Source: Escherichia coli O157:H7 (GTDB lineage: Bacteria > Pseudomonadota > Gammaproteobacteria > Enterobacterales > Enterobacteriaceae). Taken from it: a stretch of DNA of 64,000 nt. Made by a program: the position numbers. The stretch is from the NCBI RefSeq assembly GCF_013167455.1, contig NZ_CP038328.1; one strand, given 5' to 3'. Every line of letters begins with the position of its first letter. Within the stretch, counting starts at the first letter, position 1. Below are positions 56,301 to 64,000 of the stretch, in pieces.

Positions 56301-59300
56301 TGTCACGGTGCATTCAACAGACGTCACACTCTGTGCTTTCTCTGCCGAATCGGTCACCACACAGGTATATTTCCCCGCATCAGCGGACTGCGCACCTGGC
56401 TTACTGAAGGTGTCTGTCGTCTGCCCGTCAACCGGCTGACCATCCTTCTTCCAGGCGTATTTATACGGCGGCGTTCCCCCGTTGGCACTGACTGACATTG
56501 TCAGCAGCGCACCGGTATTCACGGTAAGTGTCTTATCCAGATTTTTCACAAACGCCAGCGGTACCACAAAGGACACCGGTTTGCCTTTCAGACGCAGTGA
56601 GAACGTTGCAGCCACCACGCCGTTGGTACCGGATGACCAGGTGTGCTGGCGCACTTCCGCCAGGAATTTAAAGCCCTTACCGGACGGAAACAGCACCTTA
56701 AACGCATACAACGCGTCATTGTCATAGGCATCACGCAGGGCGTTCTGGGCCTGATTCAGATAAAAATTGCCCGACATGGAAATCTCAGACGACGCCCCCA
56801 GACCATTGATGTTCTCCTGCTCTGTGGAGCAGAGCGTGGTCACATCAATATCCTGTTTCTGCCCGGCGGTGAACTGCACTTCCTTGATGGTGCAGTCCAG
56901 GCGCAGATATTCCGCCTTATCCATAGTTTCAGCAGTCGCCGGGGCAGATGAAATCATCACCTGCGTCAGCTGTGAGCGTTCATACAAAGCAGACATTCTG
57001 CCTCCTGATAATAAAAAACCCGCACGCGGCGGGGTATGGGTTTTGTAGAAAAAAGAAAAAGTCACACCGTGACCTGAAACTCCAGGGTTGCACGGTAACA
57101 GCGGTTTTCCGGAATATAGTCCTGCATTTCACTGACGGATCCCGGGGCCAGCAGCATTATGGCTTCACGGGCGTCCTGACGTATCTGACGCGCCTGCGTC
57201 ACAGTCCCGGCATAAACGTCTATCTGCACCGACACTGAGGACTCCGCCTGCCCGCCCATCACGTCCGCTGACACCGATGAAATCAGGCTGAAAACCACCC
57301 ACGGAAGCGCCACCGACGGCCTGCCATCCAGCAGGGGGACCACATACGGGTACACCTGCCCGCCGGCAAGATGCGCCAGATGAGGATACAAATCCGCCTC
57401 CGTCATCGTCTCAGTACCTCATCAATGGCCCGGTTCATCCGCGCAATCGCCACCTGTGCCGCCTGTTCACTGCGCACATCAAATGCCGGGCGCACAAACG
57501 GGTGCGGTGGCATATTCACGGTCCCCATTTCCACAAACCGCCAGTAGAAAGCATTGCGCGGGTTATCCGCCTTCATGGTGTTATCGCTGTTACCGGTGTC
57601 CGGATTAACACCCCGGATATGCACACCGGATTCCATCCCGCCATCGCGGGAGCACCGGGAAAGGACCACCACATTGCGGCGAAGTTTTCCCCTGCGTACC
57701 GGTGCCCGTGACACCACTTCTTCTTTCAGCACATTCGCACCCGCACGGGTTGCCTCACGCAGCACCCGGTTATTTTCCGCACCACTCAGAAGCTGCAAAT
57801 CGCGGCTGATGTCCTCCAGCCCCGAAAAATCCAGCAGGGTTTCGATCATTTTTCCCCTCCCAGCCGACAGAGAATTTCCAGACGCCCGCCGGTTGCATCC
57901 GGAACCGGGACCCCGACGACATTCAGGACATGGTCACGCCAGGGACCACTCAGCACATGAAGTCGTGACGCCGCCGTGATTTCACGACCAGACTGACCGC
58001 GTACCCAGATGCGGATTTCCGCCTGCGCCATTTCCGCACCGGACTGCATCCGCTCCCGGCTGCTCCTGCCCCGGATATCCGCATGAATTTTCCCGCATGA
58101 CACCCATTCTTCCGTCATTTCTCCGGCAGCATTACGGGTTAACACCGGGTTCAGAACACTGATCATCTGTGTCAGACGACCTGCAGATATTGCCATTCCC
58201 CCTCCTCATAACACCGTCGGACAACGCAAATCGTAAATCAGCACGGAAACAGAAAACGGCAGTTCCCCCTGCACGAGGTCTTCCCGCTCAGCAAGATCCG
58301 GATTCCGGTACAGCATCCCGGTCAGTCGCATGGCAGCCCCCTTCATCCGGGTTAATGCCTCACCCGGGATCAGCTCACCGTCCTCACTAATCACTTTATC
58401 CCGGCTGCCCTGGATGTAGGCCAGCAGCACGGCGGTAGCCTGACGAACCTTGTCCATCAGCATCTCATCATCCGCGTCATGGTCAACACGCAGATGTGCC
58501 TTGATTTCTTCCAGTGTCAGTAATGCTGTCACTTTCCACCTCCTGCATCCCGCCCACGTTTTGCAGCCAGAGTCCAGCCTGATGAATGAGCTTCTCCGGG
58601 CTTATCACCGGTCATACTGTTGCAGTGCCACAACGAGCCCCCCACGTCACCGTATCGCCGGGGTGGTAAGTTTCGCCGATTCTGAACACACCACGGTAGA
58701 GCATCACCGGCAGGGAAAATGTTTTTTCCGTACGCTGGCCACTGCTCTGCCGGACCACCACAGAGAACGACCGTTCACCCGTCATGCTGACGTCAATATC
58801 CGCCACCCCGTCAACCAGGCATTCCCATCCCCGCATCCCGTACGTTTTTTCATACGCCCGCCAGAGTCCACCCTGGTGTGTGGCATACGAGCCCCGGGGA
58901 AAGGATTTTTGATCGTCAATGGCGGGGAGTATTTCCAGTGCCGTGGCATCACGCCCGTCCTGCGGAGCCGGCAGGGCACTCACCGCCTCCAGAACCGCCT
59001 TCTGCAGAACATCCGGATCGTAGTCACGACCATCACGCGGAACAGGAATATGGCTTACCGCCTCCTTCACCATCTGTTCAAGCATCGGATGCACATCATC
59101 CGGAGTGATACTTTTACCGTCTGCCGGTACCGGTATTTTCGCGACCGCATCATTCACCGCCTTCTGCAGAACATCCGGATCGTAGTCACGACCATCACGC
59201 GGAACAGGAATATGGCTTACCGCCTCCTTCACCATCTGTTCAAGCATCGGATGCACATCATCCGGAGTGATACTTTTACCGTCTGCCGGTACCGGTATTT

Positions 59301-62300: not shown

Positions 62301-64000
62301 GGATACTGACGACGGGCCACTTCCAGGGCTTCAGATCGGACGCCTTTAGCCGCAGCCAGCGATTTGGCAAAGCGGGCGAAGCCAATCCCCTTATCCAGTT
62401 TCTGCTCCACACGGATCACCGGCGCAGAAGCCACCGCGGCCACATTCCCGTTACCGGCCTGTTTCACCGGCTGCGCCGTGGCGGCCTTACCGGCTTCCAG
62501 TTCACGCAGGCGCTTCAGGTGCGCATCCACCTGACGGATTTCCGCTGCGGTGTTGTCGTAATGCTCTTCCTCCTCCACATCCAGCGTGCGCCCTTCCTCT
62601 GCGGCTTTGGTCATGACCTCCTCAAGGGAGGCTGCCAGCGCTGCACGCTTGTTTTCAAAACTTTTAATCTGTTCGCCAATATTCATTATGGTCTTTTCCT
62701 TATGAAAAACGGTTGTTGACTGTGCCGCAGCGCCGGCAGAAGATGCGATTTTCACCACCGGTTTCCGGTTGCCGGACGCGGCAGAAAACGGGCGGTCGTA
62801 AGATTTAATGGTCCGGATGGTGCATTCCGCATTCGCGGGCACGGTGACGGCAGACACCTCCATCAGTTCCCAGCGCAGAAAATGCAGTCCGCCTCCGTCC
62901 AGAAAGGTGTATTCATGGGGACGGAAGCCCACGGACAGCCCCCTGACCAGCCCGGTCTTAATGGCCGCCCAGACCTCATCCAGCCGGGCAGCCAGTTGCG
63001 ACGGCATATCCGGTACGGGCTTCACCAGTGTTGCCGTGATTTCCAGCCCTTCGCTGACCCGGCGCACCGTACACTGCCCCACCGGGCGGGAATGGTCATG
63101 CTGCCAGAGAAACGGGATCGCACTGCCAAACTCCGCGCCCTCCGGCTCCAGGATGTCACCATCCCGATCCGGAGAAGGCGTTGACGCAATCCCGGTGATC
63201 ACCCGTTCATCCTCACTGAAGGATTTCACCGTCAGCAGGGAACAGGCCCGTTTAAGAGTCACATCAGCCTCCTGAAAATAAAAAAACCGCCGCAGCGGTT
63301 CATGATGGTTACAGTGTGAACAGGGTTATATGAAAAAAACCGCATATTCTTTCTTTTTCGGTTCCGGGTTAAGGGACATCAGGGAGACCGCATTGAACAG
63401 CGCCATCAGCGGGTCAATTTTTCCCCGTCCACTGGCCTGTTTGGTGATAAGAATGGCGTTACCTTTAGGCTCCACCCGGGCATTGCCGACACACCAGGCC
63501 ATCAGGGGCTGGTCACCATGCACCAGCACCCCTTCAGCCAGTTTGCGCTCGGTGGTTTTAATGGCCCCGCCCAGTTTCCAGCCCTGGCTTATCCCCACCA
63601 CAATTCCGTCGGGGATCCCGGCTTCCGCCAGTGAATCCAGAATCTGCCCCACCCCTGACGGGTCAATACCGATATGGTCCAGTAACTCAGCCTCATGAAT
63701 GCGACGCACATATTCCGCCACTTCCGCCGTGTCATCCCCGACACGCCGGACAATGGTCATATCTCCACAGGCAACAAGATCCTGAAACCGGGACGCCTCG
63801 CTCTTCCGTCGGACCACCGCGGTTTCATGCGCCCAGGCATGGCCCCAGCCCAGCCATTCGCGGGTTTCCCTGTCACGGCCAATCACGTACATTCCCAGCA
63901 GATCATCCAGGCCCCCGCCGTCAATCCCCACCGTCACCACATCAGCGCGCTGCAGGATATCGTCCAGGCTGACGCGCCTGCCCTGCTGCTCCCAGAAATC

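Follow-up and report, generated by a model that had tools for sequence, protein, structure and literature searches.

Gene order, protease-capsid fusion and a candidate nested capsid gene in the head-morphogenesis module of Escherichia coli O157:H7 prophage Sp6

The window analyzed here, a stretch of 64,000 nucleotides of Escherichia coli O157:H7 (assembly GCF_013167455.1, contig NZ_CP038328.1), ends within a phage head-morphogenesis module encoded on the minus strand. Over positions 58000-64000 the DNA matches prophage Sp6 of E. coli O157:H7 Sakai at 100% identity, over 56000-64000 it is 99% identical to phage YYZ-2008 (Pankowvirus), and identity to YYZ-2008, 2851 (an inducible Stx2c phage), 1717 and other Stx phages amounts to 95-99%; of the 5426 complete E. 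coli genomes, 1255 contain the segment, at a median of 6 locations each. Its DNA and gene content, both near-identical to theirs, place the region among the Pankowvirus or Sp6-type head modules: in Pankowvirus phages and O157 lambdoid prophages (Sakai Sp6, YYZ-2008, 2851, 1717, BP-4795, Stx1a/Stx2c phages and vB_EcoS_phi330; 95-100% DNA identity) the gene set and order are as here, the head and portal genes are already annotated, and no essential differences from Sp6 are seen, the only ones being the alleles of two G tracts (portal-X G6 and truncation of X) described below. The block runs HNH, TerS, TerL, a fused S78 protease-delta domain-HK97 capsid protein, a small ORF, a fused portal-X protein, Ad1, Hc1 and the further genes downstream.

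Read along the minus strand, the window opens in the large terminase gene, which continues past the window end and whose 3' part, encoding the nuclease domain, occupies 63326-64000 (PF20441 and phrog_2699 over 63326-63940; Sakai ECs_1542, phage terminase large subunit). A hairpin lies between terL and the ORF that follows; it is merely noted here because terminator and promoter scans showed no enrichment relative to shuffles, with 7 terminator-like sites against 6.5 expected. The next gene, at 61325-63262, is a 645-aa ORF with a GTG start that joins an S78 prohead protease, a disordered linker, a helical delta/scaffold-like domain and an HK97-fold major capsid protein, and is annotated as ECs_1543 in Sakai and as 'putative major head protein/prohead proteinase' in YYZ-2008. 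It is followed by a 73-aa ORF (61059-61280; phrog_829, Sakai ECs_5418), which has a 55-nt overlap with the annotated start of the portal gene and, among the related loci, has homologues only in the enterobacterial relatives, and by an 833-aa portal-X ORF (58612-61113). Connector and tail-proximal genes, identified by Pfam, phrog and Sakai/phage annotation, complete the series over 56280-58532: Ad1 (58206-58532; PF05135), the head closure protein Hc1 (57846-58196; PF05521), an HK97 gp10-like gene (57403-57849), a tail terminator (57062-57406) and a major tail protein with an Ig domain (56280-57065). The ORFs that an earlier note on this DNA had called on the minus strand are all present where it placed them.

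That note had read the 645-aa ORF as protease and capsid fused in one frame, and profile and fold searches bear this out. The predicted protease domain (~aa 1-165; 62768-63262) is recognized by Pfam Peptidase_S78 (PF04586, residues 48-152, 34.7 bits vs. a cut-off of 21), the capsid domain (~aa 290-645 plus the stop codon; 61325-62395) by Phage_capsid (PF05065, residues 386-635, 52.7 bits vs. 24.2) and by NCBIfam TIGR01554 major_cap_HK97 (78.3 bits vs. 27.5), whose alignment starts at residue 204, and phrog_617 matches the ORF end to end (E 3e-261). The C-terminal half adopts the HK97 fold in the AlphaFold model (pLDDT 74-93 over residues 350-640), where Foldseek retrieves the capsid proteins of Bxb1 and HK97 at E values between 1e-13 and 1e-10 (1.5e-13 to Bxb1, ~4e-10 to the HK97 capsid protein), and also that of D3. 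Between the two lies the delta/scaffold-like domain (~aa 193-285; 62408-62686; AlphaFold and TIGR01554), modeled as two long helices (195-223 and 229-262) followed by a disordered stretch, with pLDDT below 50 at residues 143-192 and 264-285. The protease part is modeled as beta-rich to residue 139 and includes two helices (88-103 and 145-162). Its candidate catalytic residues are H55 (motif LWQHD) and S110 (motif GLSVGF), which we take to be the counterparts of those of HK97 gp4; neither varies among 26 diverse homologues or among the residues aligned to it in a set of 151 sequences. The narrower HK97 prohead protease model TIGR01543 scores below its curated cut-off (46.4 vs. 59), and a PDB sequence search with the protease domain alone returned no significant relative (best E 0.52).

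The 833-aa ORF had been called the portal, a designation that holds for residues 1 to ~450, to which the portal part is restricted, and not for the remainder, a fibre-like downstream protein, here called X, to which the portal is fused. Portal proper (aa 1-454; 59752-61113) belongs to the HK97 family, as judged from Pfam Phage_portal (PF04860, residues 54-382, 272.5 bits vs. a cut-off of 39.1) and TIGR01537 portal_HK97 (349.5 bits vs. 112); it is 64% identical to a stand-alone 449-aa portal of a Serratia prophage, and its PDB relatives include 9lbn and the 8cez portal. The X part (aa 455-833; 58612-59751, with a retained ATG at 59749-59751) is 48% identical to a separate 300-aa Serratia gene and without a match in a PDB sequence search. 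It comprises a long N-terminal helix, tandem 54-aa repeats encoded by a 162-bp unit in 3.7 copies with 97% matches (58994-59586), and, at the C terminus, a CBM5/12-like domain cut short in Sp6; among relatives the repeat copy number varies and X ranges from 300 to 515 aa in length. The same searches settle a doubt raised in the earlier note, namely that the domain of one of the two large ORFs might have been wrongly assigned. Had portal and capsid been exchanged, the portal domain would lie in 61325-63262 and the capsid in 58612-61113; no such swap was obtained, and Pfam, NCBIfam, PHROG and the fold search agree with the original assignment. With nothing in its favor, an exchange of the two labels has next to no probability.

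Two features go beyond the earlier note: the fusion of portal to X, and the retention, inside the protease-capsid ORF, of the capsid gene's own translation start. As to the first, a G6 homopolymer at 59763-59768 brings portal and X into one frame, whereas with G5 the portal's TGA overlaps the ATG of X; the G6 fusion allele is common to Sp6, YYZ-2008 and 2851 and absent from 1717. To judge from these alleles, a single-G change may toggle X between a free protein and a C-terminal extension of the portal. Programmed -1 frameshifting was considered at this site and rejected: the G5 context, TTC AGG GGG ATA, contains no canonical X XXY YYZ heptamer, and the tract is therefore taken as a genetic polymorphism. 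At a second tract (58638-58643), Sp6 has G6 and 11 relatives have G7, and the resulting frameshift, which drops the last ~28 aa of X, is private to Sp6. The phi330 record was excluded from judging which G-tract allele is functional because it looks indel-prone, with several structural genes split.

In lambda and HK97 the head genes are ordered TerL-portal-protease-capsid. The HK97 module (gp2 TerL, gp3 portal, gp4 S78 protease, gp5 capsid with delta domain) shares with the present one its portal, protease and capsid families and the HK97 fold, the helical N-terminal delta-like domain in place of a separate scaffold, and an HNH endonuclease gene adjoining the terminase genes. It differs in that here the blocks are swapped, protease-capsid standing ahead of the portal, that protease and capsid form one ORF, and that the portal has two additional neighbors, a small ORF and gene X. 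The domain placement by HMM accordingly upholds the order given in the earlier note, TerL, protease-capsid, small ORF, portal, and its departure from the lambda and HK97 layout.

That departure could suggest a recent rearrangement in Sp6, or an assembly artefact, that put the protease-capsid gene before the portal. The synteny comparison with related prophages and phages speaks clearly against either: each of the 86 related loci with detectable genes, drawn from phages of five bacterial groups (Enterobacterales, Pseudomonas, Rhizobium, Burkholderia and Moraxella), has TerL, protease, capsid and portal in this order, TerL preceding the capsid gene in 72 of 72 cases and the portal following it in 81 of 81, and no close relative with the HK97 order was found. 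The same order is present in annotated Pseudomonas, Burkholderia, Moraxella and Rhizobium phages and in Serratia prophages, and many independently assembled O157 genomes carry the identical segment (100%), which argues against an artefact. A recent event is refuted because synteny holds in the related loci, and we consider such an origin extremely improbable; the module rearrangement proposed in the earlier note stands only in a deep evolutionary sense, there being no event in this prophage and the layout being ordinary for a large phage lineage. In FUBS1 (Burkholderia) and Mcat7 (Moraxella), phages with separate protease and capsid genes, the order is unchanged, so that the permutation is independent of the fusion. 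Whether the two genes are fused or not, a large lineage of proteobacterial siphophages has TerL-protease-capsid-portal as its fixed order. The domain identities, the match to known phages and this order are directly demonstrated, and we place high confidence (roughly 85%) in the overall account of the region as the head-morphogenesis block of the lambdoid prophage Sp6, of Pankowvirus type.

The fusion itself is also widespread. Among the best 150 representatives of clusters formed at 50% identity, 144 are full-length fusions, and the fused state is seen in 78 of 85 related loci, with unfused capsid genes scattered among fused ones at 50-64% identity; the two states, being interspersed, therefore interconvert. 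Sp6 does contain decay-type G-tract frameshifts elsewhere in the module, and one could picture the long ORF as a product of the same process, a frameshift merger in a defective prophage yielding a non-functional protein. Such a reading is refuted by the conservation of the fused architecture, which is the majority state at both levels of sampling, as well as by the invariant catalytic residues and by viable phages that carry it, and we regard it as very improbable. Phage 2851 and the propagated phage phi330 (PMC12502783) both bear the fusion. Virion mass spectrometry of phi330 has been deposited (PRIDE PXD061229; PMC12502783), and the text and supplement of that paper give peptide maps for podoviruses only.

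The internal start codon is where the fused ORF invites a further interpretation. Met193, encoded by an in-frame ATG at 62684-62686, falls precisely on Met1 when aligned with the stand-alone capsid genes of FUBS1 and Mcat7, and in the AlphaFold model the disordered linker gives way to the first long helix at residues 193-195. Across 144 fused representatives, a Met lies no more than 8 residues upstream of the conserved Glu197 in 129 (~90%) and a Val in a further 11, so that one or the other is found in ~97%, against an overall Met frequency of 2.4%. Direct reading of the Sp6 sequence places an AAGGA Shine-Dalgarno (SD)-like motif at 62697-62701, 10 nt 5' of the ATG, a moderate site shared with other enterobacterial members (duplex energy -6.2 kcal/mol) that is among the best 15% of the in-frame positions within this ORF; the SD at the 5' start is stronger (-10.3 kcal/mol) but serves a GTG codon. 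In 69 non-redundant fused genes, among statistics that count related sequences as independent and include sequences as low as 40% identical, the codon at the Met193 site is ATG in 68 and GTG in one, the median anti-SD duplex energy is -6.2 kcal/mol vs. -2.4 at other in-frame positions, and positions -17 to -5 contain an SD core motif in 60 (87%) vs. a background of 6.7%. The residues encoded over the motif vary (KG, QEG, LEG, EEG, KE) and the nucleotides GGA/GGAG are kept. A conserved internal in-frame start, ATG or GTG in 69 of 69 genes, is accordingly accompanied by a conserved ribosome-binding site, the combination expected of a nested gene.

From these sequence features, we propose that the protease-capsid ORF is probably a nested gene that would specify a protease-capsid fusion in small amounts and, as the main product, the capsid protein without the protease. 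Ribosomes initiating at the 5' GTG would produce the 645-aa protease-delta-capsid polypeptide, whereas those recruited by the internal SD and ATG would yield a 453-aa delta-capsid protein, homologous to the complete capsid gene in relatives that lack the fusion. Subunits bearing the protease would then co-assemble with capsid-only ones, their N-terminal proteases placed inside the procapsid as the HK97 delta domain is, with the covalent link standing in for the non-covalent targeting of HK97 gp4, and after assembly the protease would cut off itself and the delta domains. That a minority of capsid subunits carries the protease covalently on the delta domain, the bulk arising from the internal start, is a delivery scheme we favor by a narrow degree over the sum of its alternatives.

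It is also conceivable that the 645-aa polypeptide is the only product, each capsid subunit's own protease cleaving itself and removing the delta domain after assembly, with the internal ATG and SD as an unused relic. The ORF is continuous, in the enterobacterial group the strongest SD is the one at the 5' start, and databases list one protein; moreover, by our own estimate from textbook numbers, the ~13 MDa of internal protein that a T=7 procapsid would have to accommodate is comparable to the P22 scaffold load, and the conserved ATG and SD may be partly relic if fusions are frequent and recent. Such a relic is hard to square with a start codon (Met or Val) kept at the ancestral capsid start in nearly all of the diverse fused proteins, or with an SD core whose nucleotides stay fixed, far above background, amid changing amino acids. 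We hence regard a single product as possible but rather unlikely.

The logic of the proposed nested gene would be that of lambda C/Nu3, a nested protease/scaffold gene pair, and of herpesvirus UL26/UL26.5, in which a long product with an N-terminal protease and a shorter, commoner product from an in-frame internal start have the C-terminal part in common. The difference is that here this common part is the capsid protein with its delta domain, not a free scaffold, and that the two products are predicted from sequence only. The principle of such pairs is that few proteases are delivered covalently into the procapsid (PMC11565193). Other fusions likewise combine an N-terminal S78-type protease with an HK97-fold capsid, namely the actinobacteriophage 'major capsid and protease fusion protein', those of the thaumarchaeal proviruses NCAV2-Pro1/NitIsl-Pro1, and NCBIfam NF045541 'prohead protease/major capsid protein fusion protein', but they represent different sequence families, the Sp6 protein scoring 54 bits against the NF045541 cut-off of 525. 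A passage of PMC11283397, citing Liu and Mushegian 2004, also notes that fusion of the protease gene with that of the capsid may occur. In a limited literature search we found such general mentions of protease-capsid fusion, and none of the permuted order or the internal start in the Sp6/Pankowvirus head module.

As first submitted, the finding carries little weight. The GenBank wording for the fused gene, "major head protein/prohead protease", names both protease and head protein, and the finding is therefore already known: the fusion and its position before the portal are public in Sakai Sp6 and in many Stx phage annotations, and the layout is normal for a large lineage. It nonetheless serves as a reminder that HK97-type siphophages do not all follow the "canonical" HK97/lambda head gene order. 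Annotation pipelines label the entire 645-aa ORF "major capsid protein" and X "portal protein", both of which are misleading. The conserved internal start offers a testable hypothesis for how protease dosage may be set in a module that occurs in about one in four complete E. coli genomes, Stx1 and Stx2c phages being among its carriers. If true, it would represent a mode of protease delivery parallel to that of herpesvirus UL26/UL26.5, built on the capsid protein itself.

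On the minus strand of window 56000-64000, an ORF scan yields the transcription order TerL (3′ part, from 63326 to where the window ends), a protease-capsid ORF of 645 aa (61325-63262), a 73-aa ORF of unknown function (phrog_829, 61059-61280), a portal ORF of 833 aa (58612-61113) and, after it, four genes for connector and neck proteins and the gene for the major tail protein. The earlier note had proposed this order from the sequence and offered two explanations for the fused gene standing ahead of the portal: a module rearrangement or a wrong domain assignment of one large ORF. 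The second is refuted by three profile collections, which agree with the note's assignment. In Pfam, Peptidase_S78 covers residues 48-152 of the 645-aa protein (34.7 bits vs. a cut-off of 21) and Phage_capsid residues 386-635 (52.7 vs. 24.2), with Phage_portal at residues 54-382 of the 833-aa protein (272.5 vs. 39.1); the NCBIfam models TIGR01554 (major_cap_HK97, 78.3 vs. 27.5) and TIGR01537 (portal_HK97, 349.5 vs. 112) and end-to-end PHROGs matches to phrog_617 (major head protein) and phrog_2271 (portal protein) assign the two proteins in the same way, and the converse placement of portal and capsid domains is absent. As modelled by AlphaFold (mean pLDDT 73), the 645-aa protein falls into five parts. 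Its N-terminal domain is rich in beta structure and is followed by a disordered linker (residues 143-192), a pair of long helices (195-223, 229-262) and further disorder at 264-285; the C-terminal domain has Foldseek matches to the Bxb1, D3 and HK97 capsid proteins (E 1e-13 to 1e-10).

The rearrangement holds as an ancient, lineage-wide trait and fails as a local event. Across 80 IMG/VR loci, collected with a profile of diverse fused homologues, and six added loci from Serratia prophages and Pseudomonas, Burkholderia, Moraxella and Rhizobium phages, TerL lies upstream of the capsid gene wherever it was detected (72/72), as the portal lies downstream (81/81), so that synteny with related prophages gives no sign of a local permutation. 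Judged by these comparisons, the swapped block order has been stably maintained in a large lineage of HK97-type heads. In Burkholderia phage FUBS1 and Moraxella phage Mcat7 the protease (212 and 197 aa) and the capsid protein (444 and 452 aa) are encoded by two genes, and yet the order TerL-protease-capsid-small ORF-portal is that of their fused relatives; the swap is thus independent of the fusion. A portal-protease-capsid block may have been duplicated, with each part then surviving in a single copy.

The 73-aa ORF runs 55 nt past the annotated start of the portal gene; homologues were found in enterobacterial relatives only, and the small ORFs of other lineages at this position are unrelated. 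Between terL and the protease-capsid ORF, at 63284-63301 (minus), lies a hairpin that resembles a terminator and has a T run. Just past the capsid stop codon a GC-rich hairpin without a T run (GGGAGGC-GTGC-GCCTCCC, ~61288-61305, minus) separates an AGGAGG motif from the start codon (ATG) of the small ORF. A terminator scan gave no enrichment over shuffles.

Conservation among homologues argues that the protease-capsid fusion is real and functional. In an exhaustive HMMER search, 144 of the 150 best-matching cluster representatives (50% identity) are full-length fusions of 600-700 aa, protease and capsid share one ORF in 78/85 loci, and His55 and Ser110 are invariant among the homologues compared. 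Two propagating phages carry the fusion, 2851 and phi330 (the latter in PMC12502783); in the phi330 record the gene is labelled only "hypothetical protein". S78 protease-capsid fusions also occur in actinobacteriophages, thaumarchaeal proviruses and one NCBIfam model, but these belong to different sequence families.

Window 58000-64000 matches Sp6, a lambdoid prophage of the E. coli O157:H7 strain Sakai, with 100% identity, as it does many further O157 genomes. Of 5426 complete E. coli genomes, 1255 have similar segments, at a median of six places each. Over window 56000-64000, identity reaches 99% to phage YYZ-2008 (genus Pankowvirus) and 95-98% to phages 2851, 1717 and many Stx1a, Stx2a and Stx2c phages. 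In these records the protease-capsid gene already goes under the name "major head protein/prohead protease", "phage prohead protease" or "major capsid protein", and the next large gene under "portal protein". The arrangement is therefore already public; it is also ordinary for the phage group. Outside the window, just upstream of the terminase genes, lies an HNH endonuclease gene (13838-14203 of compared locus L001; Sakai ECs_1540), a neighbor common to Sp6, YYZ-2008 and the Serratia relatives. HNH endonucleases are the usual companions of HK97-type cos packaging modules.

Within the fused ORF, Met193 (ATG at 62684-62686, minus) aligns with Met1 of the separate FUBS1 and Mcat7 capsid genes, and the first long helix of the model begins two residues past it. 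In fused proteins, whose overall Met frequency is 2.4%, a Met lies at most 8 residues upstream of conserved Glu197 in 129 of 144 representatives, for the most part at -4 or -5; in 11 more the site is Val, as would be expected of an internal GTG start. At the DNA level the site is a start codon in each of 69 non-redundant fused genes (68 ATG, one GTG), predicted anti-SD pairing has a median of -6.2 kcal/mol vs. -2.4 at other in-frame positions, and an AGGA, GGAG or GAGG core is found 5-17 nt ahead of the codon in 60/69 vs. 6.7% of background positions, all in phylogenetically related sequences, so that p-values overstate the evidence. The residues encoded over the motif vary by clade (KG, QEG, LEG, EEG, KE) and the purine core is kept. 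In Sp6 and enterobacterial relatives the internal SD is moderate (AAGGA, 62697-62701 in Sp6, 10-nt spacing) and weaker than that of the 5′ GTG start, the reverse of the Pseudomonas-like clade. From the aligned Met, conserved start codon, SD core and helix onset we propose, at a probability of roughly 0.6, that the ORF makes two products, a full-length protease-delta-capsid chain and a 453-aa delta-capsid chain from the internal start; subunits of the fused kind would be built into the shell alongside the others, taking the protease inside. The principle is that of lambda C/Nu3 and herpesvirus UL26/UL26.5, here applied to the capsid protein itself. Unfused capsid genes are interspersed among fused ones at 50-64% identity, which points to repeated fusion and fission, and some conservation of the internal start could be a relic; that the full-length chain is the single product seems rather unlikely.

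The 833-aa ORF is itself a composite, its portal (aa 1-454) being joined to a distinct protein, X (aa 455-833). In Serratia relatives the portal stands alone at 449 aa (64% identity with Sp6 residues 1-450) and X is the next gene, 300 aa long (48% identity with residues 593-833); X follows the portal in 51/51 loci where it was detected, sharing its ORF in only four. Among E. coli phages the two states differ by one base in a G tract (window 59763-59768, minus): G6 fuses the genes in Sp6, YYZ-2008, 2851, phi330 and two further loci (L009 and L070), whereas with G5, in phage 1717 and six IMG/VR loci, the portal ends at a TGA overlapping the ATG of X. Both alleles are common (6 vs. 7 of the loci examined).

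With its long N-terminal helix, variable repeat region and C-terminal CBM5/12-like domain (within 58612-59751, minus), X looks like a fibre. The repeat region in Sp6 is a 162-bp × 3.7 tandem repeat (58994-59586, minus) of 54-aa units varying in copy number, and other lineages have collagen-like GXY repeats there. HK97-type portals have their C-terminus inside the head. The label "portal protein" for X in phrog_1289 and the IME307 and RHph_X2_26 annotations probably stems from fused alleles, by error propagation. At 58638-58643 (minus) Sp6 has G6 where 11 relatives have G7, a frameshift that costs X its final ~28 residues, among them its best-conserved motif, and leaves an ORF of 833 aa vs. 861 aa in YYZ-2008. 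This is a sign of decay in the Sp6 copy. In the phi330 record (PV189401.1, 3875-8872), X, a gp10-like gene and the major tail protein are split relative to close relatives, which suggests homopolymer indel errors in the assembly. Beyond the gene order itself, two modest side results lend themselves to testing: the conserved internal start and the portal-X fusion set by a G tract.
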